From Candidatus Poriferisocius sp. (GTDB taxonomy: Bacteria > Actinomycetota > Acidimicrobiia > Acidimicrobiales > Bin134): DNA of 64,000 nt. A program made the position numbers and the translations under genes. Numbering within the stretch: the first letter of the stretch is position 1; every line of letters begins with the position of its first letter. Below are positions 1 to 16,301 of the stretch, in pieces. The stretch spans positions 3,262,058 to 3,326,057 of the forward strand of contig NZ_CBDBOM010000003.1 of the NCBI RefSeq assembly GCF_965208355.1. The letters are read 5' to 3'. The notes below the pieces were generated by a model. The model was not told the DNA's origin and did no database searches. It saw nothing but the letters and a program-made list of their open reading frames with translations.

Positions 1-981
1 GCCGCTTCGGTGCCCGACCGGGCCCTGTACACAACCCGAGATCTCATCTTCGAAGTACTGGCCAACCGGCCCGACCTCATTGAGGCACTGGCCAAATCAG
101 GCATGCACGTCACGATGATGGCCGAAGGCACCGTGATCACCGAGATCCCGGAGTTCAGCAACTTGAATGAGGATTTCCCCGACAGAGATTGGAACGTCAC
201 AACCAAGGGAGGGGGTCTCGGGCCCACGACATCTCTCCCCCTGATGACCGCGGCGGTTGAGAACGTCCTCTGCCTGGAACACGATGTGTTCCCCCATGAT
301 GACGTCATGATCCATGAAATCGGCCATGCCGTTCTCAACATGGCGATCGAGGCCCAAATGGGAGACACCGAGTTTCGGTCCCGCGTCAGGGCGGCCTATG
401 AGAACGCCCTCGCTGCGGGCCTCTGGAAGCACACCTACGCCGCCACTGACGAAAACGAGTACTGGGCCGAGGGAACGGTGGGATGGTTCGACCTGAACGG
501 TCCTCCCAATCCAACCCACAACAACATCAACACCAGAGCTGAGCTGATCGACTACGACCCGGCGCTGGCCGCCCTCTTGCACGAAGTGTACGGCGACGCG
601 ACAGTCACGTCTTCGTGCCACGAGACCGTCGATACCGCGGCCTACAGCGTGGAAGGCGTGGTGCTGGGGCCCGATGATCAGCCGATAGAGGACTTCTTGT
701 TATGGATGTGGCCCGGAGAATCCACCAACAGCGCCTGGGCCATCACCGACGCCGACGGCTCGTTCTTCACCAGGGTGGTAAGCGGCTTTTTCGTGATCCA
801 CCTGTACGCAGACCGATACCACGAGTGCTCGTTCATCGGCTGGCACGGGGGCGAGGGCCTAACCAGCCGCATCGACCAAGCCGCATTCATCACAGTCGCC
901 GATGCGGATATCGACGGCATCGAGATCAAGCTGCCAGACGACCTGGCCAACCTTCCCTATATCGAATGGTGCGCAACCTGA
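1..981 (+). CDS. Zinc metallopeptidase (lethal-factor/PPEP-like zincin) with C-terminal beta-sandwich; 5' partial
   Basis: HEIGH (HExxH) motif plus YAATDENEYWAEG third-ligand motif; frame is open from position 1; C-terminal VEGVVLGPDDQPI...TDADGSF resembles a carboxypeptidase-regulatory-like domain. Confidence 0.7.
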   Translation, partial: AASVPDRALYTTRDLIFEVLANRPDLIEALAKSGMHVTMMAEGTVITEIPEFSNLNEDFPDRDWNVTTKGGGLGPTTSLPLMTAAVENVLCLEHDVFPHDDVMIHEIGHAVLNMAIEAQMGDTEFRSRVRAAYENALAAGLWKHTYAATDENEYWAEGTVGWFDLNGPPNPTHNNINTRAELIDYDPALAALLHEVYGDATVTSSCHETVDTAAYSVEGVVLGPDDQPIEDFLLWMWPGESTNSAWAITDADGSFFTRVVSGFFVIHLYADRYHECSFIGWHGGEGLTSRIDQAAFITVADADIDGIEIKLPDDLANLPYIEWCAT

Positions 982-1008
982 GCTAGCCGCTCGGTCTAGG
1001 CGGCTGGC
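982..1008. terminator. Hairpin between converging genes
   Basis: gctagccgc-N9-gcggctggc stem (one G-U pair) at the two stop codons. Confidence 0.4.
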
Positions 1009-3827
1009 GGTACCGTTGGTAGCGGTGTGCCTCGGTCTGGGATAGACGTTGGGGGCACGCTGCAATGGTCAGTGGCCAGGTCGGCTGCGCTGTCGCCGAA
1101 GTCGAGGGTGCCGAGGGCGGCGCAGGCGGCGGCAAGGGCGGCGTGGTATTGGGGGTGGTCAGCGGTAAAGGCGGCTTCGAGGGCGTTTTGTCGGGCTACG
1201 GCCGCGCGGCGGGTGTGGGCGAGCGAGCAGATGTCGGCCACGCCGTCGCCGTTGCTGTCGAAGGCGTGGAGGCGGGCGCCGCCCAGGCTGAAGTCGATGC
1301 AGAAGTAGGGGCCGGTGATCACCGGGCCGGAAAAGAACCGGGCGGCCTTGGTGGGATCGAGCGGGTCGGGCACCGAGGGCAGCCGGCGTTCGTCGGCCCC
1401 TTTGGACCCGCAGGCGTCGGCCGCCAGCGATGTTGCGGTATCGCCGGGAAAATCCATAGGGGCGCCAATGCAAGTGCCCAGGGAGGGATCGGACTCGTCG
1501 ATATCGGGCGTCGCCGGTATATCGGGCGGCCCGTGGAGGGCGTTGCGGTACTCGTCGGGGTTGAGGGCGGCCAGGCGCTCCAATGCGTGCTGGCGGGCGA
1601 TGGTGGCCCGTCTGGTGGAGTTGAGGGCACAGATGTCGGCCACGTGATCGCCATTTGAGTCCATCGGGTAGGTCTCCGGTCCGCCCAGGCTGCGATTGGC
1701 GCAGTAGTCGGGACCTTCTATGAGGCCAGAGAAGTAGCCGTTGACCACGGTGACGATCACGGTATCGGTGTGGGCTTGCTGGCCGGGCACGTTGCCGACG
1801 GTGAGGGCGAAGACGAGCTTGACGCTGTTGAACCCGTCTAGCCGAGGAGCGTCAAAATAGGGGTACCGCCCGGATACGGACTTGAGCCGGCCGCCGGCAG
1901 TCGGGTGGTAGGTGCCGTCGGCATTGGGGAACCACTCCCCCAGCACAAAGCCCTCGGCGGCTTCGGCCTGGGTGATCTGGGGTCGATCCTCGGTGCGGGG
2001 ATGGGTTTCGATGCCGGTATAGACCCATTGGTAGGTCGCCGCGCCCAGGGCCTCTTCGCTGACCAACCCGGTGCTGATTCGGCCCTGCAAGCGGACGAAG
2101 CTGCCGGGGAAAACTCGCTGATCCGGACCGGGTACGGCCCTGAGGTCGTCATCGCCGTCGCGAATGGTGATCCGCACAATGTCAGTATCCGACACACCCC
2201 ACCGGTCGGTAACGGTCAATTGGATGTACACAACGTATTGAGAACCCCGGGTGACCTCGGGCAAGGTGAACTGGGCAGAACGGGTATCGGCGCCAGCCAG
2301 CGACAAGCGCGGCCCCCTGTAAGCAAGCGTCAACGGTCTGCCCGAGGCGTTGAGCACTTGCTCCCACCGATAGTCCAGCTCAAAGCCATCAGGGTCGAAT
2401 CCCAGGCCTTGCAGCACGACGACCCCGCTCGGCGGATCGGTGTCCGGGAAGCCACCGTTGTTGCCGTCGGGGGTATCGATATCTTCGGGGGCCGCGGCCT
2501 CCGGGGGCAGGTTGTCGGCCACCATCAGCTCCACTGATGTCGATCCTGTGTGGTCGGCAGGATCAGCCACCTCCACGGTGACTGTAAACGACTCGCCCTG
2601 CTGCACGCCTTCGGGAGCGGTGAACAATGCGGTGGTGCGCGATCCAGGTCGGTTGTCGTCGTCGGGCTCCACTCCTTGGCCGCTCCAGGTGTGCTCCAAC
2701 ACCCTGGTGCGGGCAGTTCCGTCGGCGGTACCCACCGCGATGAGGGTGATGCCGTCCTCAGCCACCTCGGGGGATATCACATAGCGGTTCTCGCCGGCGG
2801 CTTGGATTCCCACCAAACGGTCTTCAGCGGTCGACGGATTGGGGTCAGTGGCGGACAATTCGATTTCCACAGTGGGCGCGGCATGGGCGTCGCGAATCAC
2901 GATCATGACGATTTGCTGCGCCGACGCTCCGTGCTCGTCAGTCACCGTCAGTCGGTAATACAAGAAGTAGGTATCGGCAGTATCTCCGCGTACAAACGGC
3001 AGCCGACCCACCGTCTCCGACGTGATGCTGCCCACGACATCGGGATCCTCATCGGTGCTCAGCGTCCTTTGACCGTCGGTAGAGACGGGCAGCGTGGCGG
3101 TGACTGAGGCCACATCGCTGGCGTAGATGCGCTCCCAGCGAAATGCGCTGTCAGGCAACGGGCCGTCGGGATCGTAGCTGGCCGATCCGTCTACCACGAG
3201 GAGCGAGCCCTCGCGGATGTCCCACTCGAAATCCCGGTTGCCGCCCTCACCGGGGGCGTGGATAACTCCCTCCACGGTATAGCGCTCTTCATTCTCATCC
3301 ACCAGGCCATTGCCGTTGTCGTCGTAACCGGTCACCTGCTGGCCTCTCGGAGCCGGCTGCTTGGCCGACACGGTTATCACTGCGGTTGGGTCGTGATTGA
3401 CGCTGGCTGACACTGTCGTGCTTCGAGAGGCTTCGGGAAATCCATTGTCGGTCACCGTCAACCGAAACTCGATGGAATCGACATTCTCTCTCACCAGCGC
3501 CCTGGTAAAGATCACAAAGGTCGCCGTACGTCCGGCCGGAATTCCATTTGCCTCATCAGCAGGAGACGGGGTTATAGGGATTCCGGCAAGGGACCCGGTC
3601 ACCACCTCCCACTCGTACTTGACGATGTCGCCGTCAATATCGAAACTTCTCGAGCCGTCCAGCTCAACGGTGGTTGTCCCGGCATCCCGATCTGTCGTCA
3701 CACCACCAACTGTGGCAACCGCAACTGGCCGCACCTGGGTTTGTTCCTGCGCCACCGCCCCAAGCACAGCCCACCCCGACAGCGCCACCGACAGCGCCAC
3801 CATTGAAAATGCCATTCTGATGGGCAT
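996..3827 (-). CDS. Secreted PKD/Ig-like repeat surface protein, paralog 1
   Basis: Signal peptide ending AVA-Q; repeated DGSxSxDxDG...YxW...LTVTD motifs; two copies of the C-terminal GPxxC..SLGG..DSNGDxVADIC module. Confidence 0.8.
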   Translation of the reverse strand: MPIRMAFSMVALSVALSGWAVLGAVAQEQTQVRPVAVATVGGVTTDRDAGTTTVELDGSRSFDIDGDIVKYEWEVVTGSLAGIPITPSPADEANGIPAGRTATFVIFTRALVRENVDSIEFRLTVTDNGFPEASRSTTVSASVNHDPTAVITVSAKQPAPRGQQVTGYDDNGNGLVDENEERYTVEGVIHAPGEGGNRDFEWDIREGSLLVVDGSASYDPDGPLPDSAFRWERIYASDVASVTATLPVSTDGQRTLSTDEDPDVVGSITSETVGRLPFVRGDTADTYFLYYRLTVTDEHGASAQQIVMIVIRDAHAAPTVEIELSATDPNPSTAEDRLVGIQAAGENRYVISPEVAEDGITLIAVGTADGTARTRVLEHTWSGQGVEPDDDNRPGSRTTALFTAPEGVQQGESFTVTVEVADPADHTGSTSVELMVADNLPPEAAAPEDIDTPDGNNGGFPDTDPPSGVVVLQGLGFDPDGFELDYRWEQVLNASGRPLTLAYRGPRLSLAGADTRSAQFTLPEVTRGSQYVVYIQLTVTDRWGVSDTDIVRITIRDGDDDLRAVPGPDQRVFPGSFVRLQGRISTGLVSEEALGAATYQWVYTGIETHPRTEDRPQITQAEAAEGFVLGEWFPNADGTYHPTAGGRLKSVSGRYPYFDAPRLDGFNSVKLVFALTVGNVPGQQAHTDTVIVTVVNGYFSGLIEGPDYCANRSLGGPETYPMDSNGDHVADICALNSTRRATIARQHALERLAALNPDEYRNALHGPPDIPATPDIDESDPSLGTCIGAPMDFPGDTATSLAADACGSKGADERRLPSVPDPLDPTKAARFFSGPVITGPYFCIDFSLGGARLHAFDSNGDGVADICSLAHTRRAAVARQNALEAAFTADHPQYHAALAAACAALGTLDFGDSAADLATDHCSVPPTSIPDRGTPLPTVPPAA

Positions 3828-4114
3828 AATAGCCAGTCTTATGCTTGCAATCGCCCAGACGGGTGGACGCAGGGCGCCGGTGGCAGGAGATAGCCAACCT
3901 GGAAATGAAGTCAGGCGGTCTCGATGGGAAAATCTTTAGCAGTCGTTACACATTTCGTATAACACCCCCATATTATCGACAGATTGCTCTTACTTGAGCC
4001 AGAACCAACGAAAACGTCCTTGAACCAAGCGACCTCGAAAGCGGTGGACATAGCGAGACACGTCGTTGAAGATGCTTCTCTCAGTAACAAAACCACTAAC
4101 AACTGGGAGGCACC

Positions 4115-5296
4115 ATGGCAGCGAGGCAGAGGCTCACGGCGAAGTTCGTGGCCACAGTGAAAGAGCCGGGAGCCTACGGCGACGGAGGCCACGGCTCCCA
4201 CGGGCTGATCCTGCGAGTGCGGGAGGCCAAGGACGGGGGCGTGACCAAATCGTGGGTGCAACGGCTCATCATCAACGGCAGGCCCACCCACATGGGGCTG
4301 GGCCCCACATGGCTGGTTTCGCCCGCCGAGGCCCGCGAGGCGGCGTTGGACAACCACCGCACGGTCCGCAGGGGAGGCGACCCCCGGCGCGGCGCCGGCA
4401 TCCCCACCTTTGCCGAGGCCGTGGAGCAGGTAATCGCCATGCACTCCGCCGGCTGGAAGAACGGGGGAGGCACCGCCGAGGCATGGCGCACCCAGCTCGC
4501 CCGCCACGCCGCTCCCCTGTCTGACAAGAAGGTGGACAGGATCACCCCCGGCGACGTTCTCGGCGTGTTGGAACCCATCTGGCTCACCTTGCCGGAGATC
4601 GCCAGAAAACAGCGCCGGCGCATCAACTCGGTGATGAAGTGGGCCATCGCCCAGGGCTATCGCAAAGACAACCCGGCGGGCGACGCACTGGCCGCTGCCC
4701 TGCCGAGACAGAACGGCGGAACGCACCACCCCGCCATTCCCGCCGAAAGGGTGGCCGACGTGATTGCCGCCGTCTATGCGTCGGGCGCCTGGCAGGGAAC
4801 CAAGCTGGCCTTTGAGTTCCTGGCCCTCACGGCGTGTCGCTCCGGTGAGGTTCGGTTCGCAACGTGGGAAGAGATCGACCGGGAGTCTCGGGTTTGGACC
4901 ATCCCAGCCCACCGCACCAAAACCTTCACCGAGCACCGCGTGCCGCTGACCGACGCGGCGCTAAAGGTGCTGGACGAGGCTGAGAAGATCATCGACAACA
5001 GCGGCCTGATCTTCCCCTCACTCACCGGGCGGCCGCAAAACGACAGCACCCTGTCGAAGCTGTTGAGAGAGATGGGCGCGGGCATGGTTCCCCACGGACT
5101 GCGGAGCTCGTTCAGAAGCTGGGCGGCCGAGGCCACCGACTACCCGTGGGAGATCGCCGAGATGGCCCTGGGCCACACCGTGGGCACCAAGGTGGAGCGG
5201 GCCTACCTGAGAACTGATCTGTTTGAGAAGCGGGTTAGCCTGATGGAGGAATGGGCCGACTTTCTTGCCCGCATCCCAAGAAGGACACACCAGTAG
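4115..5296 (+). CDS. Tyrosine recombinase/integrase, P4-like, with N-terminal arm-binding domain
   Basis: Arm domain (YGDGG..GLILRV..KSWVQR..MGLG..VSPAEAREAA); catalytic R (ACRSGE), K (RTKT), HxxR (HGLRSS), H (ALGH), Y (RAYLR); RBS GGGAGG upstream. Confidence 0.93.
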   Translation: MAARQRLTAKFVATVKEPGAYGDGGHGSHGLILRVREAKDGGVTKSWVQRLIINGRPTHMGLGPTWLVSPAEAREAALDNHRTVRRGGDPRRGAGIPTFAEAVEQVIAMHSAGWKNGGGTAEAWRTQLARHAAPLSDKKVDRITPGDVLGVLEPIWLTLPEIARKQRRRINSVMKWAIAQGYRKDNPAGDALAAALPRQNGGTHHPAIPAERVADVIAAVYASGAWQGTKLAFEFLALTACRSGEVRFATWEEIDRESRVWTIPAHRTKTFTEHRVPLTDAALKVLDEAEKIIDNSGLIFPSLTGRPQNDSTLSKLLREMGAGMVPHGLRSSFRSWAAEATDYPWEIAEMALGHTVGTKVERAYLRTDLFEKRVSLMEEWADFLARIPRRTHQ

Positions 5297-5349
5297 TAAC
5301 AATTCGTATCTTGCATTCCGCTGACCAGCCCCTATAGACCCGATCTGGC

Positions 5350-5491
5350 TCCGGCGGCGGGAGTGCTGCTGGTCGTCGCAGGTCCTTGCTCGCGCTAGGG
5401 GCGCTGTTGGCGTTGGTTGCAAGCGTGCTGATCTGGGCCGCGCCCGGCTCCCAGGCGCAAACCCCGCCCAACATCCCCCCTGTCGCGATCG
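5350..5491 (+). repeat. Left outer inverted repeat, pairs with 13343-13484
   Basis: 142 bp with 6 mismatches by manual alignment; 5350-5396 is a perfect 47-bp match to the reverse complement of 13438-13484. Confidence 0.95.
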
Positions 5492-8400
5492 GTGTCCTCG
5501 GCGCTGCCACGCCGAACGACAACGGCACGGCCACCGACCCAACGGACGACTATGTGGTCCAGGCGTTGACCGGAGATCGAAGCTTCGATCCCGACGCGGC
5601 CAGCGGCGCCGCCAACAACGGGATCGCACAGTTCCGCTGGGAAGTGGTGACCGATACCTATAAGGACTGGCTGGCCATCACCAATCCCAACGCGGCAAAT
5701 GCATCGTTCATCGTTCCGAACGACGCATCCATCGCCCGCTACGGCCAGACCATTGAATTCCGGTTGACGGTGTGGGACGCCGATCCGCGGACATCTGTTG
5801 GCGCCCTGTCTGATTCCGACACGGTGACCTATAACTTCCGGGCCGCCGAGAGCCCCACCGCCGACATCACCATCACCGCCTTGTTGCCCAACCCCACCGC
5901 CGTTGAGAATTACGACGACGACGGCGACGGGATGGTCGATGAGGATGACGAGCAGTTCACTGTTGACGCCATCATCTCCCGCCCAGGTGAAGGCGACAAC
6001 TCTGACTACGAGTGGCACATCAAGGAAGGCGCCCTGCTGACGATTGACGGTTCCGGCAGTTCCGACCCCGACACCCGCCTGACTGATGCCAACTTCACCT
6101 GGACCCGTGTCTACGACAGCAGCGAAGACACCGGTGTCTCGACAAATGCTGGCGCTGTGGACGACACCTTGCCTGGTGGCACTGATGCTGAGGGCGCTGG
6201 CGCCACCGGCATGAAGATCAGCTCCCACACCCCGGCTGCCGACGGCACCCCCGAAGCCCTCAGCCCAACCAATCTCCGGATTGTGGCGCCGCTGTACAAC
6301 GATGACGGCTCCGGCCCGCAACCGTTCTTCAGCTACTACCGCTTGACGATTGACGACAACGGTGCCACCGATGGCGGTAACACCGACACCGCCGACGTGC
6401 TGATCGTCATCCACGACCAGCCCAACGATCCGGTGGCCGGCACCCGCGCAGCCCCAATCACCGTGACCGCCGACGGTCCCGACGCTGATACGGATGCGGA
6501 TGACGGTGCTGTTGTTGAAAGCAAGCTGGGACCCAACCGGTACTTGGTTGAGCCCAACCACACTGTGACCATCACGGCGATGCCATTTGACGCCGATATC
6601 GGTGCCGCTGGTGGCAGCACCGGCCTCCTTACCTCGTTTGAGGGTGCCAGGCCGACTGCGCAAGGTGCGACCAGTGCCACGCTGATGATTCCGCGAACCG
6701 CTCCTCAGGGAACTGAGTACGAGGTCAACATCACCATCACCGATAATCTCGGTACGCCGATGCGCAGCTCTACGACCACGGTGACCATCGTGGCCGTCCG
6801 CAACTCGGCCCCCGAGGCGGTTGCGCCGGAGACCATCACCGTTGGCGATGGTCCTAACGGTGGCACCATCGGTGCCTTCAACCTGCCTACTGGTCAGGTC
6901 ATGCTGCGGGGTATCGGGTTCGACGCCGACGGCGACGACCTCGCCTTCACCTGGACTGAGCTGGCCTACCCGCTTGTCGATCCTGAACCTGCAACAGGCC
7001 CTGCACTCAACACTGATGGAACCCCAGCTGCGATCAGGTTGCCGAGGAAGCCCTATCTGAGCATCGACAACGCTGATCAGGAGACGGCCTCCTTCTCGGT
7101 GCCCGAGGTGGACAGCGTGAATCTGCCCATCGCCCAGATCAATCATGACGGCGACGACGGAACTACCCCCGCAATCAACGGCTATGCGATCCCCGTATCG
7201 TTCACCGTCACCGACAGCTGGGGCGAGTCCACTACTGGCATGGTGATTGTCAACATCTACGACAACGAGCAATACGCCACGGTGGCCAACGCTGGTGCCA
7301 ACCAGCAGGTTTCCTCCGGTGGGTTTGTCCGCCTGAATGGCTCTGGCAGTAGTCCTTCAAACCCCACTACGCAGCAGCTGGACTATCTGTGGACCTACAC
7401 CGGTATCACCACCGACCCGGCGACCCAGGACCGTCCGGCCATAACTCCGCAGGAGATGCGGGAGGGTTATCGCGAGGGCGTGTGGTTCCCGTATGACGGG
7501 CTGACCGAGCCGACTGATGGCTCCGACCCCGCCACCACCACTGACGACGACGATACCGTTGCTGGAGACCAGGGCCGTGGCAGCTACCACCCGACTGCTG
7601 GTGGGGAGCTGAAGCAGCAGACCACCAGGTTCCCGTACTTCGATGCTCCGAGCCTGCACGGCTTCAACAGCATCAAGCTGCACTTCTCGCTGCTGGTCTT
7701 CGTCGATGCAAACGACAATGACACGGCCGACGACGGTGAAGAGCAGAACACCGCTCGGGTGACCATCACGGTGAGCGACGGCTACTACTCGGGCATTATC
7801 ACCGGTCCTGACTTCTGCACCGGGTACAGCCTGGGCGGTCCTCAGACCTTCGCCTTCGACAGCAATGGCGACGGCGTGGCCGACATCTGCTCGCTGAAGA
7901 CCACCCGCCGCGAGGCGGTGGCCACTCAGAACGCTTTGAACGAGCTGGCCGCTCTGTTCCCGGAGACGTTCAAGGATCACCTGCACGGCATGCCTGTGGA
8001 GGATGACGACACCACTGCTGACGTTGACGAGAGCGAGCAGTCGATCGCCAGTCAGTGCGCTTCGGCGCCCAAGAACCTGGGTGACTCCGATGCGGCTTTG
8101 AATGCTGATGCTTGCGGTCCGGCTGGAACGTTCGCCCGTCGGGTGTCGAGTCCGCCGGCGCCGGTTGATCCTTCGGTGCGGGATGTGTTCTTCTCGGGCA
8201 TCGTCTCCGATGAGAACTTCTGCACCAACCTGAGCCTGGGCGGTCAGCCGCTGTACGCCTTCGACAGCGATGGCGACGGCGTTGCCGACATCTGCTCGCT
8301 GGGCTACACCCGCCGTGAGGCCGTGGCCCGCCAGAACGCTCTGCAAGCGGGCTTCCTAGAGCACGATCAGTTTGCTGCGGCTCTGGCCAGGGCCTGCGCC

Positions 8401-8511
8401 GAGTTGGGCACCACCGACTTCGGTGACAGCGCTGGCCACCTGGCCGCTGACCGGTGCAGCAACCCCAGGCCGAGCACGCCTGGCACGGCACTGCCAACCG
8501 CTACTAACTAG
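5350..8511 (+). CDS. PKD/Ig-like repeat surface protein, paralog 2; headless (probably silent) cassette
   Basis: Close paralog of 10338-13517; frame reads SGGGSAAGRRRSLLAL from 5350 but has an in-frame TAG at 5335-5337; first possible start is TTG 5386, inside the signal peptide. Confidence 0.85.
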   Translation, partial: SGGGSAAGRRRSLLALGALLALVASVLIWAAPGSQAQTPPNIPPVAIGVLGAATPNDNGTATDPTDDYVVQALTGDRSFDPDAASGAANNGIAQFRWEVVTDTYKDWLAITNPNAANASFIVPNDASIARYGQTIEFRLTVWDADPRTSVGALSDSDTVTYNFRAAESPTADITITALLPNPTAVENYDDDGDGMVDEDDEQFTVDAIISRPGEGDNSDYEWHIKEGALLTIDGSGSSDPDTRLTDANFTWTRVYDSSEDTGVSTNAGAVDDTLPGGTDAEGAGATGMKISSHTPAADGTPEALSPTNLRIVAPLYNDDGSGPQPFFSYYRLTIDDNGATDGGNTDTADVLIVIHDQPNDPVAGTRAAPITVTADGPDADTDADDGAVVESKLGPNRYLVEPNHTVTITAMPFDADIGAAGGSTGLLTSFEGARPTAQGATSATLMIPRTAPQGTEYEVNITITDNLGTPMRSSTTTVTIVAVRNSAPEAVAPETITVGDGPNGGTIGAFNLPTGQVMLRGIGFDADGDDLAFTWTELAYPLVDPEPATGPALNTDGTPAAIRLPRKPYLSIDNADQETASFSVPEVDSVNLPIAQINHDGDDGTTPAINGYAIPVSFTVTDSWGESTTGMVIVNIYDNEQYATVANAGANQQVSSGGFVRLNGSGSSPSNPTTQQLDYLWTYTGITTDPATQDRPAITPQEMREGYREGVWFPYDGLTEPTDGSDPATTTDDDDTVAGDQGRGSYHPTAGGELKQQTTRFPYFDAPSLHGFNSIKLHFSLLVFVDANDNDTADDGEEQNTARVTITVSDGYYSGIITGPDFCTGYSLGGPQTFAFDSNGDGVADICSLKTTRREAVATQNALNELAALFPETFKDHLHGMPVEDDDTTADVDESEQSIASQCASAPKNLGDSDAALNADACGPAGTFARRVSSPPAPVDPSVRDVFFSGIVSDENFCTNLSLGGQPLYAFDSDGDGVADICSLGYTRREAVARQNALQAGFLEHDQFAAALARACAELGTTDFGDSAGHLAADRCSNPRPSTPGTALPTATN

Positions 8512-8521
8512 CAAACCGACC

Positions 8522-8592
8522 CTGGTTCGCCAGAACCAGTAGCACAAAACGAAGTGGCCCGGCCCCAGCGGCCGGGCCACTCCGCGTTTGTT
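8522..8592 (+). terminator. Double hairpin / intrinsic terminator after paralog 2
   Basis: ctggttc/gaaccag stem, then 12-bp stem agtggcccggcc/ggccgggccact followed by T-rich gtttgtt. Confidence 0.8.
8544..8587 (+). repeat. Left inner inverted repeat, pairs with 10265-10308
   Basis: 44-bp perfect match to the reverse complement of 10265-10308. Confidence 0.93.
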
Positions 8593-8667
8593 GGTATCGG
8601 TTGATGGGAAGGGTGCAAAGTGTGTCGCGCTCCAACCTTTAGCGGCGACTGGGCTCTTGGAGTGGGG

Positions 8668-8976
8668 TTAGCCGGCTTCGGCGGGAGAGTCGACGTCGAG
8701 CTTGGCCTCGATACGGGTTGGGCGTTAGCCGTGACCTTCGAACTGGGTCTCGACCGCCTTGAGTTCGACGGTGACGTTGGTTTCCAGGTCCTTGATAGCG
8801 CCGGTGACGTTGGATTCCAGGTCCTTGATGGCGCCGGTGACCTTGGTGTCCAGGTTGTTGACCGCCTGCTCGAGGCTGGCAAACCTGGTGGACAGGTCAC
8901 GCAAGTAGTGGAAGAGCATCCCGATTAGCCCTGCGCCTAGCACGCTGATGAGTGTGGTGGAAATGACAGTGTTCAC
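8668..8976 (-). pseudogene. Small membrane-anchored coiled-coil protein with probable premature stop
   Basis: N-terminal TM helix, 11-aa repeats VTGAIKDLExN; after TAA at 8725-8727 the frame continues RPTRIEAKLDVDSPAEAG to a second TAA at 8668-8670. Confidence 0.55.
8769..8855. repeat. 33-bp tandem repeat, ~2.6 copies
   Basis: Unit cggtgacgttggWttccaggtccttgatRgcgc at 8769, 8802 and partial at 8835. Confidence 0.9.
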
Positions 8977-9137
8977 TGACCTCTCCCTCTCTACATGGAG
9001 GGTTGCTAGGGGGGAAGCTTTGTACCAGGCTACCCCGGCCAGCTCCTGCCGACCACAACAGCCTAGGGCTAGGCGGCTTCAAGAGCTCCCGATTCGAGTC
9101 TGCGATTTCGAGCTCTTGCGTTGCTGGGATGGTGGGA

Positions 9138-10085
9138 CTACGACGGTGGATTCGCCAAGAGTTCTTGGATGGGAAGAAAGTTGTCAGGCCAGCCGTAGGG
9201 TTGGCAATCCTCGGGAATGCACACGACGTGTTCGCGCAAGACCCACTCGCTTGGTTCCTGCTGCATGATTTCTCCAACTGAATTCATATCTGACATCACA
9301 AAGGACTGAAGATCATCGCCGTCATAGGTCACATCTTCAACGAAGGCGACAAATCCATACGGCCTTACATCATCAGCATTCCATTGTGCGACGGACCCTG
9401 GCACAACGGGTCGACCGGGTTCATCTAAGAATTCCAAACCAGCATCAATTGCAGCGTCGTCCCAGTCGGCCGCGTTTCCCCATATCCTTCCAGATGGAAG
9501 TGAGAATCTATTGTGGAATTCGACCCCAGTGCCGGCATCGTCTGAATTGAGCCGCCAAGCAACATAAGACGTGGCAAAGCCCGCCAAGAAGCACCACTGA
9601 TCCGATCCTCGTGCGCCGAGGCAGTCGTCCATTTTGACTTCACGCCGATACTGCTCGAGGAGATCCGATGATTCTGACGGTTCCGGGTTCTCAGATGTGC
9701 CGGAATTTGCTTCAGTTGGTTCTGCCTCGGGTAGGGCCGTCCCTGAGGGGTCAAGGGAGGAGCCTGATGGGCTAGTCGGGGATAGCACTTCGGATTCGGG
9801 CTCCTCCGCCTCAGAGACTTCAGGGGTAGAAGCCGCCGGGGTTTCAGATGGCGGGTTTTCGGAGCTACTGCCTTGATTGATGGTTTGGGAGCACCCGACA
9901 ATGACGGTGAGCGTACCGATGTTGACGAGGGCTACGGTTACCCCCCCTATTGCAAGACTCAAAAGAACGGTCTTAACGGGGTGAGCTAGCACCCAGCGCC
10001 CCCACTCCTTCATCCAGCGCAAAAACCTGCTAACGACAGTTTCAGGGGCTTCCTGTTCTGGGGCTTCTTGCTCCTGTTCGTTCAT
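9138..10085 (-). CDS. Membrane-anchored CHAP-domain-like protein, catalytic residues substituted
   Basis: TM helix, Ser/Pro/Glu linker, then TSYVAWRL..WGNAADW..PGSVAQW..GFVAFVE..SDMN, matching the CHAP motif layout. Confidence 0.75.
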   Translation of the reverse strand: MNEQEQEAPEQEAPETVVSRFLRWMKEWGRWVLAHPVKTVLLSLAIGGVTVALVNIGTLTVIVGCSQTINQGSSSENPPSETPAASTPEVSEAEEPESEVLSPTSPSGSSLDPSGTALPEAEPTEANSGTSENPEPSESSDLLEQYRREVKMDDCLGARGSDQWCFLAGFATSYVAWRLNSDDAGTGVEFHNRFSLPSGRIWGNAADWDDAAIDAGLEFLDEPGRPVVPGSVAQWNADDVRPYGFVAFVEDVTYDGDDLQSFVMSDMNSVGEIMQQEPSEWVLREHVVCIPEDCQPYGWPDNFLPIQELLANPPS

Positions 10086-10264
10086 TGAACTCTGGCCCTA
10101 GGCGGATGGGCAGGTTTGATTCGAATCTAGCAGCGTCGGCGAGGTCGATGATAGGACTTATTACTTAAGCCCAATCTGGTTGGGATCGGGTGGAGGTTGC
10201 CGCATTCCAGAATGGAATGGATAGGCCCGCCGACCAGAACGGCCCAGAGCCAATCTGTGGGTAG

Positions 10265-10330
10265 ACGCGGAGTGGCCCGGCCGCTGGGGCCGGGCCACTT
10301 CGTTTTGTATTACTGGTTCAGATGAACCAG
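10265..10330 (-). terminator. Double hairpin after paralog 3; contains right inner inverted repeat
   Basis: Same 12-bp stem (10271-10299) and ctggttc/gaaccag stem as after paralog 2. Confidence 0.75.
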
Positions 10331-10337
10331 GGTCGGT

Positions 10338-13300
10338 TTAGCTGCTAGGGGCTTGTGGCAGTGCCGTTCCCGGCGTGCTCGGCCTGGGGTTGCTGCACCG
10401 GTCGGCGGCCAGGTGGCCAGCGCTGTCACCGAAGTCGGTGGTGCCCAACTCGGCGCAAGCCCGGGCCAGAGCCGCAGCAAACTGGTCGTGGTTCAAGAAG
10501 CCCGCTTGCAGAGCGTTCTGGCGGGCCACGGCCTCACGGCGGGTGTAGCCCAGCGAGCAGATGTCGGCCACGCCGTCGCCGTCGCTGTCGAAGGCGTACA
10601 GCGGCTGGCCGCCCAGGCTCAGGTTGGTGCAGAAGTTCTCATCGGAGACGATGCCCGAGAAGAACACATCCCGCACCGCAGGATCAACCGGCGCCGGCGG
10701 ACTCGACACCCGGCGGGCGAACGTTCCAGCCGGACCGCACGCATCAGCATTCAAAGCAGCATCAGAGTCACCCAAGTTCTTGGGCGCCGAAGCGCACTGG
10801 CTGGGAATGGCATCTTCAGCTTCGACCGGCGGAGTCGCAGTGTCGTCAGCTTCCACAGCATCCTTGCCATGCAGGTGATCCTTGAACGTGTCCGGGAACA
10901 GAGCGGCCAGCTCGTTCAAAGCGTTCTGAGTGGCCACAGCCTCGCGGCGGGTGGTCTTCAGCGAGCAGATGTCGGCCACGCCGTCGCCATTGCTGTCGAA
11001 GGCGAAGGTCTGCGGACCGCCCAGGCTGTACCCGGTACAGAAGTCCGGACCGGTGATAATGCCGGAGTAGTAGCCGTCGCTCACCGTGATGGTTACCCGA
11101 GCAGTGTTGGTCTGCTCTGTGCCACCCGTCGGGGTGAAGGACACCGTCAGCGAGAAGTGGAGCTTGATGCTGTTGAAGCCGTGCAGGCTCGGAGCATCGA
11201 AGTACGGGAACCTGGTGGTCGCCTGCTTCAACTCCCCACCAGCAGTCGGGTGGTAGGTGCCGATTGTCCCGTAGTCGGGGTAGCCGGCGACCTGGCTGCC
11301 AGCATCGACCTCGTCGGCGGTGCCGTCAGTGGTGGTGTCGGCGTTGCCGTCATAGGGGAACCACTCGCCCTCGACATAACCACCGGCAACCTCCTGCGGA
11401 GTCAGGGCCGGACGGTCCTGGGTGGCCGGATCGGTGGTGATCCCGGTGTAGGTCCACAGATAGCTCAGGCCAACAGCGGTGCCCGCCGAGCTGCTGCTAC
11501 CAGAGCCATTCAGGCGGACGAACCCACCGGAGGACACCTGCTGGTTGGCACCAGCGTTGGCCACCGTGCGGTACTGCTCGTTGTCGTAGACCGTGACGAC
11601 CACATCGTCAGTGCTGGACTGGCCCCAGCTATCGGTCACCGTGAATCGGATGGGGATCTGATAGGCGTTGACGTTGGGAGTATTGGTGTCATCGTCGTGG
11701 TCGATCGAGATGATCGGCAGATTCACGCTGTCCACCTCGGGCACCGAGAAGGAAGCCGTCTCCTGATCAGCGTTGTCGATGCTCAGGTAGGCCTTCCTCG
11801 GCAGCCTGATGTCCACAATTTCAGCTACTGACCCTGTGAGGCCGGTGTCGGCTGAGGTATCAAGAGCCGGAGGAGTGGCAGTGGTGAGCGGATAGGCCCG
11901 CTCAGTCCAGCTGAAGGTGAGGTCGTTGGCATCGGCATCGAACCCGATACCCCGCAGCATGACCTGGCCGGTGGGCAGATTGAAGGCACCGATGGTACCG
12001 CCGTTGGGACCATCGCCAACCGAGATGTTCACCGGAGCAACCGCCTCGGGGGCCGTGTTGCGCACGGCCACGATGGTCACCGTGGTGGTGCTGCTGCGCA
12101 TCGTACTATCGGTCACAGTGATGTTGACCTCGTACTCGGTTCCTTGAGGAGCAGTCCGAGGAACCATCAGCGTGGCCACAGTCGGTGCGGCAGGATCAGG
12201 AACCCGAACGCCATCGCCTGAGAAAGAGGTGATAAGACCGGTATTGCCGCCAGTGAGGCCGATGTCGGCATCAAACGGCATCGCGGTGATGGTCACCGTG
12301 TTGTTTGGCGCAACCAGGAACCGGTTGGCGCCCAAGCTGCTGCGCACCAAAGGAGTCGCGGTTCCGTCGACATCATACGTTGCCGTGATCGGTGCAGTGC
12401 GGGTGCCGGCCACCGGATCGTTGGGCTGGTCGTGGATGACGATCAGCACGTCGGCGGTGTCGGTGTTGCCACCAGCAGTGGCGCCGTTGTCGTCAATTGT
12501 CAAGCGGTAGTAGGCGTAGAACGGATTGGGGCCAGAGCCGTCGGTGTTCGCCAGTGCAATAACGGTCCTGCCAGCGTCGTTGTCAGCGTCAGCAACTGAT
12601 TCGCTACCTACGCTGGAGCTGATCTTCTTACCAGTAGCGGCATTGTCCGAACCGCCGGGGAGGGACGGATCGAGATCGGCGGCGTTGTTGGAGACACCGG
12701 TATCGGCGCTGCTGTCATAGACGCGGGACCAGGAGAACATGGCATCAGTCAGGCGTGGGGTGTCGGGGTCGGTGCTGCCGGAACCGTCAAACGTCAGCAG
12801 GGCGCCTTCCTTGATGTGCCACTCGTAGTCAGCATTGTCGCCCTCACCTGGCCGGGAGATGATGGCGTCAATCGTGTATTCCTCGTCGTCCTCGTCGATC
12901 ATCCCGTCACCGTCGTCGTCGTAGTTGGCCACGGCAGTGGGGTTCTTCAAGAACGCGGACACGGTGATGTCGGCGGTGGGGCTCTCGGCGGCCCGGAAGT
13001 TGTAGGTCACCGTGTCAGTATCGGACAGGGCGCCAACATCGGTCCGCGGGTTGGCATCCCACACCGTCAACCGGAACTCGATGGACTGACCGTAGCGAGC
13101 AATGGATGCCTCATTCGGAACGATGAAGGTGACATCCGTTGTCGAGCCGGAAACAGGGGTGAGGGCAAGCCAGTCCTTATAGGTGTCGGTCACCACTTCC
13201 CACTGATGGAGGTTGATCCCGTCGCCGCCCGTGTTGTCGGGATCAAAGCTGCGAGAACCCACCAACGTCTGGACCACGTAGTCGTCCGCCGTGCCAGCAG

Positions 13301-13517
13301 TGCCGTCAGGGCCGTTATTGGGAGTGGCATCGCCGAGCGTTGCGATCGCGACTGGGGGGAGGTTGGGCGGGGTTTGCGCCTGGGAGCCGGGCGCGGTCCA
13401 GATCAGCACGCTCGCTACCAACGCCAACAGCGCCCCGAGCGCGAGCAAGGACCTGCGACGACCAGCAGCACTCCCGCCGCCGGACCAAACCGAGTGAAGC
13501 ATCGTCATCATGGGCAA
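10338..13517 (-). CDS. PKD/Ig-like repeat surface (S-layer-like) protein, paralog 3; complete copy at the putative expression site
   Basis: Full signal peptide (…GRRRSLLALGALLALVASVLIWTAPGSQA-Q), AGAAAG RBS-like sequence, PKD-like repeats, duplicated C-terminal module; start may be TTG 13517 or ATG 13511/13508. Confidence 0.88.
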   Translation of the reverse strand: MPMMTMLHSVWSGGGSAAGRRRSLLALGALLALVASVLIWTAPGSQAQTPPNLPPVAIATLGDATPNNGPDGTAGTADDYVVQTLVGSRSFDPDNTGGDGINLHQWEVVTDTYKDWLALTPVSGSTTDVTFIVPNEASIARYGQSIEFRLTVWDANPRTDVGALSDTDTVTYNFRAAESPTADITVSAFLKNPTAVANYDDDGDGMIDEDDEEYTIDAIISRPGEGDNADYEWHIKEGALLTFDGSGSTDPDTPRLTDAMFSWSRVYDSSADTGVSNNAADLDPSLPGGSDNAATGKKISSSVGSESVADADNDAGRTVIALANTDGSGPNPFYAYYRLTIDDNGATAGGNTDTADVLIVIHDQPNDPVAGTRTAPITATYDVDGTATPLVRSSLGANRFLVAPNNTVTITAMPFDADIGLTGGNTGLITSFSGDGVRVPDPAAPTVATLMVPRTAPQGTEYEVNITVTDSTMRSSTTTVTIVAVRNTAPEAVAPVNISVGDGPNGGTIGAFNLPTGQVMLRGIGFDADANDLTFSWTERAYPLTTATPPALDTSADTGLTGSVAEIVDIRLPRKAYLSIDNADQETASFSVPEVDSVNLPIISIDHDDDTNTPNVNAYQIPIRFTVTDSWGQSSTDDVVVTVYDNEQYRTVANAGANQQVSSGGFVRLNGSGSSSSAGTAVGLSYLWTYTGITTDPATQDRPALTPQEVAGGYVEGEWFPYDGNADTTTDGTADEVDAGSQVAGYPDYGTIGTYHPTAGGELKQATTRFPYFDAPSLHGFNSIKLHFSLTVSFTPTGGTEQTNTARVTITVSDGYYSGIITGPDFCTGYSLGGPQTFAFDSNGDGVADICSLKTTRREAVATQNALNELAALFPDTFKDHLHGKDAVEADDTATPPVEAEDAIPSQCASAPKNLGDSDAALNADACGPAGTFARRVSSPPAPVDPAVRDVFFSGIVSDENFCTNLSLGGQPLYAFDSDGDGVADICSLGYTRREAVARQNALQAGFLNHDQFAAALARACAELGTTDFGDSAGHLAADRCSNPRPSTPGTALPQAPSS
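13343..13484 (-). repeat. Right outer inverted repeat, pairs with 5350-5491
   Basis: Reverse complement of 5350-5491 with 6 mismatches. Confidence 0.95.
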
Positions 13518-13559
13518 CTTTCTATCAGACCGGGTCAGTGGTTCAAAGTCTATAGGGTC

Positions 13560-13626
13560 GCCGACACCCTAATGGGACAGAACCGCTCGGTTCTGTGTCG
13601 GCGGACTGAGCCCGACCCCGGCTCAG
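13560..13626 (-). promoter_or_regulatory. Structured 5' leader of paralog 3
   Basis: Stems ctgagcc/ggctcag (13606-13626), acagaaccg/cggttctgt (13577-13596), gccgacac/gtgtcggc (13560-13602). Confidence 0.5.
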
Positions 13627-13636
13627 CACGGGGAAT

Positions 13637-13665
13637 AGTTTGTCAGGTCTTGGGGGAAGTTTCAA
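13637..13665 (-). promoter_or_regulatory. Candidate sigma70-type promoter
   Basis: Minus strand TTGAAA-17 bp-CAAACT with TG extended -10, just upstream of the first leader hairpin. Confidence 0.4.
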
Positions 13666-13742
13666 ACACTCCCAGACAATCTTCCGACCATTTCTTGCAG
13701 GAAGGAACAGGTCAGCCCGCTAGAGAATCGCCAAAACCGCCC

Positions 13743-16301
13743 TCAGGCGCAGGCATCTCGGCTCAAGTGTCGGGGGTCGTCGCCGAAGTCGGCGGTGCCG
13801 AGTTCTCTACAGGCCAGGGCCAGGGCATTGTCAAAGGACGCTCGGGGGCTTGCGAAGACATTGAGGGCGTGCTGGCGGGCGACGGCCTCACGGCGGGTGT
13901 AGGGCAGCACGCAGGTGTCGGCCACGCCGTCGGCGTTGCTGTCGAAGGGGTAGAGGCGGGCGCCGCCCAGGCTCAGGTTGGTGCAGAAGTCGGGGCCGTC
14001 GACCAGCGCGCCGGAGAAGAACGTGTCAGCCAGGTGAGGGGGCACCGGGGGTGGCGGGCCGGCCACCCGGGAGGTGGCGCAGGCGTCTTGGGCCAGGTTG
14101 GCGGGATCGTCGCCGAAGTCGCCGGCGATGCGGTTGCAGGCCAAAAGCACCTGGGTGGTGAACCGGGTGTTGTTGAGCGAGGCCAGCGTGGCGAGCGCGT
14201 TTTGGCGGGCGATGGCCTCGCGGCGGGTGGTGCGCAAAGAGCAGGTGTCGGCCACGCCGTCGCGGTCGCTGTCGAAGGCGTAGGTGGGGGGGCCGCCCAG
14301 GCTCAGGTTGGTGCAGAAGTCGGGGCCGTTGATGACCCCGGAGAAGAACCGGCCGGCCACGGTGATGGTCACGGTGTCGGAGTCGGTGGCCCGGGTGCTG
14401 TCTCGCACGGTGAGGGTGAAGGTGAACGACACGCTGGTGTAGCTGCCGATGTCGGCGGGGGCGTCGAAGTAGGGAACCGCGCTGTTGGCCCCGAACAAGA
14501 TGTTGGGATAGACGTTGCTGGCGGGCAGAAAGCCCGCCAGGGCCAGGCGGTCGAACTGGGTGAGCGGGCGCTCGGATTGGGGCGGAGTGGTTTCGAATCC
14601 GGTGTAGGTCCAGCGCCAGGAGGTGATCCGGTTGGTGCGGTTGGGATCGATGCTGCCGGAGCCGTCGAGGCGGACCTGGGTGCCGGGCTCCACGCTCTGG
14701 TTGGGGCCGGCGTCGGCTTCGGGGGGATTGATGTTGCCCAGCACGATGACCGTGACGGTGTCGGTGTCGTTGGCGCCCCACTGGTCGATCACGATGAAGC
14801 CGAGGTACACCTCGAGCTCGCTGAAGCCGGCGACGTCGGGGGGTGTGAACGACACGGTGGCGGTGTCGGCGTTCATCAGCTCGAGGGTGGGCTCATCGAG
14901 GGGATCGCCGTTGGCGTCGGCCTGGAACCAGCGATAGCGCAGCGGATCGCCGTCGGCGTCGGAGCCGGTGCCGGTGAGGATCACCAGGCCTTGGCGGTTG
15001 GTGCCGCCCCGGGGGCCGTCGTCCACCACGGCATCGGCGGGGGCGGTGGCCCGGGGGCGGTTGTTGTCGGCCACGGTGAACACGACCACGTCTCGCCCGA
15101 TGCGGTTGGTGGGATCGGACACGGTAACGGTCACTACGTAGGTTTGGCCCTGGGGGGCGTTGGTGGGGGCTGAGAACGTGGCCCGGGAGGTGGGGCCGTG
15201 GGTGGCGTTGGAGGAGGCGGGGTTGACGCCGGTGCCCACCCAAGTGTGGACCAGCCTTGAGGCGTCGCCGGTGTCGCGGTCGGTGGCTCGGGCGATGAGC
15301 TCCACGGTGGCGCCGGGGCGGACCACGTAGTTGAGGGTGGGGTTGTCGGGATTGAGGGCGTTGGCGTCTTGGACCGGCTGGCGGGCGTTGTAGAGCTCGA
15401 GTTCGACCTCGGGGGCGAAGGGCTCGTCGACCACGTTGATGCGCACCGAGGCCACCACCTGCTGGCTGGTGCCGCTGGTGACGGTGAGGGTGTAGATGAC
15501 GACGGCGGTTTGGCCCTGGCGCAGGTTGGCGGGAAACAGCAGGGTGACGTCTTGGTCGTCGCGGTCTTCGAAGGGGACGCGGAACTCGTTGTAGGAGGGG
15601 ACGGCCGAGAGCCGGGTCCATTGGAATCGCAGCGTGCTGTTGGCGGTGGCGCCGACGCCGGAGCGGCCGACGCCGTTGAGGGTGACGCGGGCGCCCTCTC
15701 GCACCGTCCACTCGTCGTCGTCGTTGCCGCCTTGGCCGGGGCGGCGGACCACGCCGGGGACGGTGTAGCGCTCGTCGTCTTCGATGATGTGGTTGTTGTT
15801 GGCGTCTATGGGATTGGGGTCGGCGATGAAGGCGGTGAGGCCGATGGCCGCAGTGGGCGGGCCCTCGAAGTTGAGGGTGACGGTGTCGGTGCCGGTTGCG
15901 CCCTCGGGATCGGTGACGGTGAGGCGGAACTGGATGGTGTAGCCGTATCGGGCCGCTTCGGAGGGCGACGGGGATATGAACGTGGCGGTGCGGCCCCGGG
16001 GGAAGCCGGTGGGGGTGATGGCGAGCCAGGAATAGTTGGAGGTGATGACTTCCCAGCGGTAGTCGAGCACTTGGTTAGCGCCGTCGATGTCGAAGCTGCG
16101 GGTGGCGTCGAGGGTGACGAAGCCCGAGCCGAGGGCGACGGCGCGATCGGCGCCCGCTCGGGCGATTGGGGGGGAGTTCTGGGTTTGGGCCGCGGCGGTG
16201 GAGGCGGGGGCCAGAGCGAGGACGGCGGCTAACAGAGTGGCGGCGAGAACGGTGCTGAGGGCGCGCTTGTTAAGGGCGGGGAGTGGGCGGGCGATGGCCA
16301 T
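13743..16301 (-). CDS. Secreted PKD/Ig-like repeat surface protein, paralog 4
   Basis: Signal peptide ending AAA-Q; PxAxAGxD..LDxxxSxDxD PKD-like repeats; duplicated C-terminal GPDFCTNLSLGG module. Confidence 0.82.
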   Translation of the reverse strand: MAIARPLPALNKRALSTVLAATLLAAVLALAPASTAAAQTQNSPPIARAGADRAVALGSGFVTLDATRSFDIDGANQVLDYRWEVITSNYSWLAITPTGFPRGRTATFISPSPSEAARYGYTIQFRLTVTDPEGATGTDTVTLNFEGPPTAAIGLTAFIADPNPIDANNNHIIEDDERYTVPGVVRRPGQGGNDDDEWTVREGARVTLNGVGRSGVGATANSTLRFQWTRLSAVPSYNEFRVPFEDRDDQDVTLLFPANLRQGQTAVVIYTLTVTSGTSQQVVASVRINVVDEPFAPEVELELYNARQPVQDANALNPDNPTLNYVVRPGATVELIARATDRDTGDASRLVHTWVGTGVNPASSNATHGPTSRATFSAPTNAPQGQTYVVTVTVSDPTNRIGRDVVVFTVADNNRPRATAPADAVVDDGPRGGTNRQGLVILTGTGSDADGDPLRYRWFQADANGDPLDEPTLELMNADTATVSFTPPDVAGFSELEVYLGFIVIDQWGANDTDTVTVIVLGNINPPEADAGPNQSVEPGTQVRLDGSGSIDPNRTNRITSWRWTYTGFETTPPQSERPLTQFDRLALAGFLPASNVYPNILFGANSAVPYFDAPADIGSYTSVSFTFTLTVRDSTRATDSDTVTITVAGRFFSGVINGPDFCTNLSLGGPPTYAFDSDRDGVADTCSLRTTRREAIARQNALATLASLNNTRFTTQVLLACNRIAGDFGDDPANLAQDACATSRVAGPPPPVPPHLADTFFSGALVDGPDFCTNLSLGGARLYPFDSNADGVADTCVLPYTRREAVARQHALNVFASPRASFDNALALACRELGTADFGDDPRHLSRDACA

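Follow-up and report, generated by a model that had tools for sequence, protein, structure and literature searches.

A probable inversion-type cassette switch for PKD-repeat surface proteins and its candidate P4-type invertase in Candidatus Poriferisocius

Programmed surface variation through inversion of DNA has been described chiefly in pathogens of animals and in commensals of the gut, with Xer-like, Fim-like, Rci-like or serine recombinases. Integrases of the P4 type normally move genomic islands into tRNA genes. In the mycoplasma systems vsa, vsp and vpma, as described in the available part of PMC2268961, site-specific inversions join silent genes to a unique promoter, and a recombinase gene (hvsR, mbr or xer1) is adjacent. 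The same part of that source (PMC2268961) places the vsa crossover inside the coding region, the fixed part being the promoter and the 5' end of the gene (714 nt), and the vpma and vsp sites in the 5' untranslated region. In the sfx sites of plasmid R64, the 7-bp spacer and the 12-bp right arm are conserved and the left arm is variable, an asymmetry thought to limit the reaction to inversion (PMC11852207, available part). Here we analyse a stretch of 64,000 nucleotides (the window) from the 3.7-Mb, 3-contig genome of Candidatus Poriferisocius sp., in which a P4-type tyrosine integrase gene (INT) adjoins an inverted repeat made of two genes for PKD-repeat proteins. The locus is very likely an inversion-based cassette switch for a large secreted or surface PKD-repeat protein.

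The inverted repeat consists of two convergent paralogous genes (5350-8511 on the plus strand and 10338-13517 on the minus strand) with 79% amino acid identity and a mosaic nucleotide identity of 80-94%. The first repeat arms (5350-5516 and 13318-13484) are 92% identical, and all arms together span 5350-8587 and 10265-13484, both genes whole. The minus-strand gene encodes a 1059-aa PKD-repeat surface protein and begins with a signal peptide, M(P)MMTMLHSVW-SGGGSAAGRRRSLLALGALLALVAS...; homology of the plus-strand copy to it sets in only at SGGGSAA. These residues of the signal-peptide n-region are encoded by the core stretch 5350-5371, which holds the 18-nt core TCCGGCGGYGGGAGTGCT. No promoter, ribosome-binding site or start codon was found ahead of the signal peptide in the plus-strand copy, whose earliest possible start (TTG 5386) lies within the hydrophobic core of the signal peptide. 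The head of the expressed gene plus its upstream DNA (13485-13760) occurs once in the genome, and the exact 18-mer occurs twice, at this locus only. The locus comprises one expression site and one complete start-less cassette. Features of the vsa/vpma kind were found together: a single promoter-bearing head, start-less cassettes (here and in 11 other genomes), cores at the junctions that are inverted in all six contiguous loci, and a linked recombinase gene.

Forty genomes of the same genus were searched. The architecture was present in 12 congeneric genomes, with one expression site, one to three silent cassettes and every cassette starting at the core. Junctions were compared in two ways: 11 were aligned, and 29 sites (12 expression and 17 silent) from the 12 genomes were profiled without gaps. 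The core was found at 29/29 sites, and its positions 4-18 are invariant save for position 5 (89%) and position 9 (C or T). Homology of the expression site to every silent cassette starts at one same base. Over the 30 nt that precede the core, identity between the expression site and the silent sites within a genome is 20-43%, as in random sequence. The site is one-sided: it is conserved on the cassette side only, and the other side is unrelated. Silent cassettes stand behind at least eight unrelated upstream contexts, in none of which a start codon precedes the signal peptide. In G007 and G016, the stretch common to the expression site and the INT-adjacent silent site is exactly 18 nt long; over the next 100 nt their ungapped identity is 42-48%. 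Efficient recombination by RecA needs a longer shared stretch than 18 nt. Across the 40 genus genomes, 34 exact copies of the 18-mer were found, in 19 genomes, versus one match for the reversed control, and this count is a lower bound (the G046 core is a variant with two changes).

A reading made earlier from the letters of this DNA alone (the sequence-only reading) had proposed an island integrase co-opted to flip the cassette and, as an alternative, that insertion of the integrase had merely removed the head of the plus-strand paralog. The alternative is rejected: cassettes that lie far from INT (the second silent cassettes S2 of G016 and G046, and those of G004, G024, G055 and G023) show the identical cut, to the base. 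A single accidental truncation cannot account for one cut in so many contexts, and a defined crossover site can. Nor did any INT-less relative carry the full-length plus-strand paralog that this alternative would call for. The cassettes of G004, G024, G055 and G023 are head-less, and G047 and G054, also without INT, have tandem same-strand duplicates of the whole gene at another position, each with its own head and leader (100% and 72% identical). Judged by sequence, these duplicates are ordinary duplications at the same locus, unlike the head-less cassettes.

Full-length INT orthologs were found in nine genomes (75-94% identity), together with a partial copy in G005 and an N-terminal fragment in G019. 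All nine lie directly upstream of the core of a start-less cassette, at approximately 53-105 nt in eight of them and at 1.6 kb in G018, where an AAA-ATPase gene stands between INT and the silent core. In the six contiguous loci (this genome, G007, G016, G018, G051 and G046) the INT-adjacent cassette is always inverted relative to the single expression site, the core-to-core distance is 8.1-15.9 kb, and the expression site is always beside a PKD gene and the Lhr helicase gene, as it is here; the G003, G044 and G002 assemblies break at the repeat and are not among the six. The earlier expectation that orthologs stay next to inverted cassette pairs in related genomes was thereby borne out. INT is intact in 9/9 genomes, with a pairwise ratio of nonsynonymous to synonymous substitution rates (dN/dS) of 0.06-0.30 (median 0.18, 36 pairs, dS 0.24-0.77), and is under purifying selection. 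No other recombinase was matched among the 62 other open reading frames (ORFs) of nine loci, including loci without INT. The silent cassettes of INT-positive genomes are open over 1038-1250 codons in 8/8 cases, while in INT-negative genomes 2/7 are intact (both in G024) and 5/7 are truncated, with open lengths of 503 codons in G004, 632, 137 and 359 in G055 and 733 in G023. Cassettes running off contig ends (G044, G003, G019 and G002) were excluded from both counts.

A rearrangement of the segment was seen in G046, a one-contig assembly whose INT is 90-91% identical. The two ends of its contig overlap and were left untrimmed (C1:3793463-3801808 matches C1:1-8345 at 99.88%). Starting with the expression-site core, the copy at the contig end follows C1:23449-11830 in reverse complement (99.97% over 11,622 nt), a stretch that starts at the INT-adjacent core. 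This layout means that both isomers of the 15.9-kb core-to-core segment are present in the assembly. In the recombinant, 9/9 informative sites of an 818-nt repeat downstream of the core are of the silent-cassette type, and the DNA upstream of the core has the expression-site sequence. The crossover therefore took place no more than 185 nt from the first base of the core. In comparisons between species, the cassette that is silent in G018 shares 84% identity (1257 aa) with the one that G023 expresses and 71% with the one that G024 expresses; for the cassette that G018 expresses, the closest matches are the two silent ones of G046. One type of cassette is thus expressed in one species and silent in another, as switching over evolutionary time would give.

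The INT ORF has an ATG start with a GGGAGG Shine-Dalgarno sequence in front, and the last base of its stop codon is 5296; the start at 3940 given earlier includes approximately 175 nt of intergenic DNA, the gene proper running from 4115. Matches to Arm-DNA-bind_3 (E 7e-9), Phage_int_M (3e-19) and Phage_integrase (2.5e-16) are all above the curated Pfam cut-offs, and INT matches the PHROG 1 integrase at 1e-49. The nearest NCBIfam model, PRK09692 (integrase domain), scores 101 bits, well under its cut-off of 434. By its protein sequence, INT is a member of the P4-type integrase family. The motifs TACRSGE, RTKT, HGLRSSFR, LGH and ERAY, which by the general motif pattern of tyrosine recombinases, not by a structural alignment, would hold the catalytic R, K, HxxR, H and Y, are invariant in 9/9 orthologs. 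The sole match to a solved structure (2khv) is the central domain of a phage integrase and gives no help in placing catalytic residues. The ORF, Pfam, motif and repeat analyses upheld the earlier description of an intact tyrosine recombinase ending at 5296 with the repeat starting at 5350. Among related proteins, the 16 clusters of the INT clade are at ≥75% identity; the next proteins come only at ≤60%, where P4-type relatives number in the thousands.

INT is probably the invertase of the switch. This assignment draws on its intactness in nine species, purifying selection, its fixed place by the core and its being the sole recombinase found at the loci, and also on the discrete clade, the paralogs that lie by tRNA genes without inverted repeats (see below) and the intact cassettes where INT is present. 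What the sequence-only reading had proposed therefore stands as regards linkage and, in G046, inversion. We infer the remaining parts: that INT is the catalyst, instead of RecA or a recombinase supplied in trans, where exactly in the core the crossover falls, and that switching occurs in this genome.

The expression site is fixed; it consists of a promoter, a ribosome-binding region and 9-11 leader codons and ends at an 18-22-nt core in the coding sequence of the signal-peptide n-region. In the proposed mechanism, INT would bind each of the two inverted cores on its conserved side and pair them, with strand exchange towards the left of the core, at a point within TCCGRCGG. The 8.1-kb segment 5350-13484 would then invert, so that the silent body joins the promoter and leader and the expressed body turns silent. 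The promoter, the leader codons and INT, which is outside the segment, would stay put, while the cassette bodies, terminators and middle cargo turn over. An inversion switch in which INT pairs the cores is the likely explanation of the locus as a whole. The balance of evidence leans, somewhat less firmly, towards a P4-family island integrase, arm-binding domain included, that was domesticated to serve a chromosomal coat-switching system as its dedicated invertase, with vertical inheritance in the genus, decay where INT is lost, and exchange of surface proteins of at least 1000 aa behind a leader of 9-11 codons.

Several observations weigh against this explanation. INT is tied to the inversion by sequence comparison, and the G046 isomers are assembly-level, not read-level. 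The G046 crossover was mapped only to a 185-nt interval in which homologous recombination is possible, and RecA-dependent inversion could act on the long repeats here (3.2 kb, 80-94%) and in G046 (818 nt, 98.9%). The relatives are kin, so the linkage and intact-versus-broken counts are not independent, and duplication and loss could mimic the expressed/silent swaps. Head-less cassettes with the same core occur in G004, G024, G055 and G023 without an INT ortholog in the locus (nor was there any INT match genome-wide at E ≤ 1e-100), and G024 retains two intact silent cassettes. One silent cassette of G016 and one of G024 stand in direct orientation and could reach the expression site only after another inversion; multi-site inversion systems likewise turn a direct cassette by another inversion first. 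For this genome, Logan contigs of the four runs with the highest shares (0.86-0.92) among six, compared over 3000-16000, break at repeats and show no joint at 5350/13484, although with 47 identical nt after the core against 31-letter words these contigs cannot phase the junction. Other Logan joints and loose ends, among them the joint 5935>8260 and the ends 10264 and 10299, are short-sided or may stem from related strains. A metagenome scan with the expression-site head gave three contigs, none from this species, and no alternative isomer of the locus.

Some of these observations would fit inversion by RecA-dependent recombination between gene-length repeats, with INT as a vertically inherited remnant of an old island that plays no role. 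Repeats long enough are available (arms of up to 540 nt at 94% and 47 identical nt from the core here), the G046 crossover is resolved to no less than 185 nt, silent cassettes persist in the four INT-less genomes, and the mosaic identity along the two cassettes suggests gene conversion too. We consider this unlikely: a junction at the same base in at least eight unrelated contexts is not a product of homologous recombination, just 18 nt are common to the two sites in G007 and G016, no island genes or direct attachment (att) repeats were found, and a bystander integrase would hardly stay intact at the observed dN/dS in nine species at a fixed distance from the core. INT could instead mainly capture and excise cassettes at the core, by integron-like circular insertion or deletion between direct cores, and the inverted pair would be a by-product. 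P4-type integrases normally integrate and excise, cassettes in direct orientation stand behind unrelated flanks (S2 of G016; 7014+ in G024), and cassette turnover is fast (INT of G000 and G007 is 94% identical, the cassettes approximately 47%). Yet the INT-adjacent core is inverted relative to the expression site in 6/6 contiguous assemblies, the sole rearrangement actually observed is an inversion, and no excisionase-like gene was found among the neighbour and locus ORFs, all of which makes capture as the main activity very improbable. A static locus of convergent paralogs left by an old inverted duplication, with the second paralog expressed from TTG 5386 or by read-through from INT and no switching, is scarcely credible. 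It would agree with the lack of an inversion joint in the Logan contigs, within their phasing limit, and with the lack of a terminator between INT and the cassette, which leaves read-through transcription possible. Against it, a start at TTG 5386 would remove the charged n-region, an in-frame stop lies at 5335 and there is no other start, the head-less architecture recurs in 11 other genomes, and both the G046 isomers and the swaps among species speak for movement. The switch with INT as its probable invertase remains the preferred reading, and the features of the locus are listed in Table 1.

Table 1. Features of the integrase and cassette locus, with positions in the window.
Feature	Position	Strand	Description
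Intergenic DNA 5' of INT	3828-4114	+	promoter-like site 3947-3976, GGGAGG ribosome-binding site, without tRNA remnant
INT, P4-type tyrosine integrase, 393 aa	4115-5296	+	arm-binding, central and catalytic domains
Spacer, INT stop to silent core, 53 nt	5297-5349	+	in-frame stop 5335-5337, without start codon
Silent-site core TCCGGCGGCGGGAGTGCT(GCTG)	5350-5371	+	first base homologous to expression site
Silent cassette (paralog 2)	5350-8511	+	1053 open codons from core
Terminator hairpin 3' of silent cassette	8549-8585	.	16-bp stem, inside inverted repeat
Unique middle segment, ~1.7 kb	8588-10264	-	CHAP-domain gene 9138-10085, small ORFs 8508-8900 and 8897-9277
Twin terminator hairpin 3' of expressed cassette	10267-10303	.	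identical GC-rich 16-bp stem
Expressed cassette body (paralog 1)	10338-13484	-	core to stop
Expression-site core	13463-13484	-	reverse complement of 5350-5371
Expression-site head	13485-13684	-	leader M(P)MMTMLHSVW (start 13517 or 13511), ribosome-binding region, ~200 nt of strongly conserved DNA with stem-loop

Features of an integrated island were looked for around INT. The sequence-only reading had seen no tRNA, excisionase, replication or phage genes nearby, and this was confirmed: ARAGORN found no tRNA or tmRNA within the window, the best blastn-short match to a tRNA fragment beside INT was 10 nt (E 0.8), and Pfam and PHROG scans of the neighbouring ORFs gave no excisionase, replication, transfer or phage structural match. 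No direct att repeats were found around INT; the only repeats of the core are inverted. The locus, lacking a tRNA, direct att repeats and island cargo, is not an integrated island or prophage. An island remnant at INT was also considered and rejected, no tRNA fragments or repeats being found around the gene. As also stated earlier, members of one surface-protein family flank INT on both sides: its neighbours are PKD/K319L-like repeat proteins (996-3827 on the minus strand and the cassette from 5350 on the plus strand). The sole notable match among the neighbouring ORFs was the CHAP peptidoglycan-hydrolase domain gene at 9138-10085. Four more P4-type integrase genes are present in the same genome (C2:253062-254207, C3:2646144-2647265, C2:231478-232623 and C3:3422667-3423809), 46-57% identical to INT. 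Two of these paralogs lie 186 nt and 184 nt from tRNA-Arg-cct and tRNA-Ser-gct, respectively, the classical island arrangement, and no inverted repeat neighbours any of the four. Two have an internal stop in the matched frame, and C2 carries two further integrase fragments. Contig C1 of this genome (20.6 kb) has tRNA-Arg(tct) and tRNA-Gly(tcc), the same pair as C3:745999-746195, and may be a redundant haplotype contig.

Short sequences around the cores were also compared. The motif GCTGACCAG is kept in six of the seven INT-adjacent spacers printed, and G044 has GTCAACCAG. A 10-nt string (CCCTATAGAC in this genome) is common to the spacer and to the DNA approximately 80 nt upstream of the expression-site core (13550-13570). 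The equivalent string in G046 (C1 around 7450 and 23455) is CCTGATATGG; it differs between genomes and matches within each. From their sequences, the shared strings and GCTGACCAG may be candidate arm-type sites or a trace of a common origin of the two flanks. Within INT itself, the string GCACTCCGCCGGC (4441-4453, codons MHSAG) looks like the reverse complement of the core and is probably due to chance in GC-rich DNA. In G019 (C34:124-450) the INT ortholog is cut at approximately residue 104 and joined straight to the silent core, and on the metagenome contig L059 (1-250) INT is frameshifted after MHSAG and truncated near residue 130, beside cassette fragments. Both integrases look like decaying versions. 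The core-like string as the cause of these truncations was dropped, as the break points are elsewhere.

The hairpins on the two sides of the middle segment lie just inside each repeat arm and were scored as terminators toward this segment; they resemble terminators that act in both directions and would shield the middle cargo whichever way it lies. The cargo varies among species. The order of the middle-segment genes in G007 versus G046 (RCC1 and Fic genes) was compared and is not explained by one inversion alone. The small minus-strand ORF 8508-8900, which extends into the repeat arm back to 8508, contains three 33-nt (11-aa) tandem units at 8746-8844 and has homologs in the middle segments of G016 and G018; by sequence comparison it is a recurring companion of the cassettes. 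Small ORFs at the loci of five relatives (G004, G055, G016 and G018 among them) have weak coiled-coil-type Pfam matches. The cassette protein and the small ORFs matched nothing in NCBIfam or PHROGs.

Upstream of the expression-site core (approximately 75-120 nt), the conserved 200-nt leader contains a compound stem-loop (13558-13603, minus strand) whose pairing is kept through two-sided changes in several pairs across seven genomes. It has no Rfam family, and an Rfam scan of 3700-14000 gave one chance-level match (E 0.78). This stem-loop may regulate the expression site as an RNA or DNA element. At their ends, the four PKD-repeat genes of the window all carry, twice, a module of approximately 65 aa with paired cysteines and the motif D-x-D-G-D-G-V-A-D-I-C-S-L (stretches 1162-1760, 10492-11096 and 13846-14372). 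No Pfam, NCBIfam or PHROG match was found for this module, and the ESM Atlas gave no usable one; it may be a shared anchoring or calcium-binding module. At the left flank, the gene 10-981 (plus strand) is conserved with one or two copies in relatives and served solely as a synteny anchor; its product has a weak, sub-threshold Pfam match to ATLF (E 0.0014, 18.8 bits against a cut-off of 27.4). Hints on habitat are weak: a word share of 0.05 in a sponge-metagenome run, which is no evidence of habitat, and sponge-associated names of metagenome-assembled genomes for some INT relatives.

If the proposed switch is real, a chromosome can domesticate an island integrase as an invertase, and an arm-domain integrase can use a short asymmetric site inside coding sequence. 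As far as our searches show, it would be the first invertase of the P4 integrase family and the first programmed surface variation described in this lineage. Speculatively, the lineage would be under pressure to switch its coat, such as from host recognition or phage attack. The 18-nt core with the compact 393-aa INT would be a candidate for a new inversion tool. In annotation, a lone integrase of the INT clade should then not be read as a sign of a mobile element, nor a start-less cassette as a pseudogene. The literature searched, in which subscription journals were largely outside coverage, gave no matching system in sponge symbionts, no P4-like integrase in DNA inversion and no inversion between a signal-peptide expression site and silent cassettes.

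Among known systems, the sapA genes of Campylobacter fetus are inverted S-layer homologs swapped behind a single promoter by an inversion of several kb, which depends on RecA and on long conserved 5' regions. At the present locus, unlike sap, the shared sequence goes down to 18 nt (G007 and G016) and a recombinase gene is linked. The vsa, vpma and vsp recombinases are Xer-like, as against a P4-type enzyme with an arm-binding domain here. Their hosts are wall-less animal pathogens and their products lipoproteins, whereas here the host is an uncultured high-GC bacterium and the products are PKD-repeat proteins of at least 1000 aa. The resemblance to Mycoplasma pulmonis vsa (HvsR), M. agalactiae vpma (Xer1) and M. 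bovis vsp (Mbr), as the available part of PMC2268961 presents them, lies in one promoter-bearing expression site, promoter-less silent surface genes and an adjacent tyrosine recombinase gene; the fixed coding part, 714 nt in vsa according to the same part of the source, is 9-11 codons here.

The shufflon swaps the C-terminal ends of the plasmid adhesin PilV, while at this chromosomal locus nearly the whole protein is exchanged behind a fixed N-terminal leader. The logic of multiple inversions, the asymmetric one-sided site and a recombinase gene just outside the invertible DNA are shared with the R64/IncI shufflon and its recombinase Rci (PMC11852207, available part), a likeness in working and not membership. 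In domain architecture, the cooperative binding of Rci is ascribed to an extra C-terminal domain (same part of PMC11852207), while INT has an N-terminal Arm-DNA-bind_3 domain. The three-domain architecture of INT (Arm-DNA-bind_3, Phage_int_M and Phage_integrase) is that of island integrases of the P4 and CP4-57 type. Unlike in those islands, the site is 3' of the end of the integrase gene instead of upstream of its 5' end, the sites are inverted, and INT is inherited with a chromosomal locus in at least nine species. Finally, type I hsdS invertons (PsrA/CreX of S. pneumoniae and the Mycoplasma hsd loci) likewise have one expressed gene, 5'-truncated inverted silent copies and an adjacent tyrosine recombinase, according to the available parts of PMC4948785, PMC7672463 and PMC7096588. 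The cargo described there is a DNA-specificity subunit, with repeats in the gene body and chimeric products, whereas the exchange proposed here takes place ahead of the whole mature protein.

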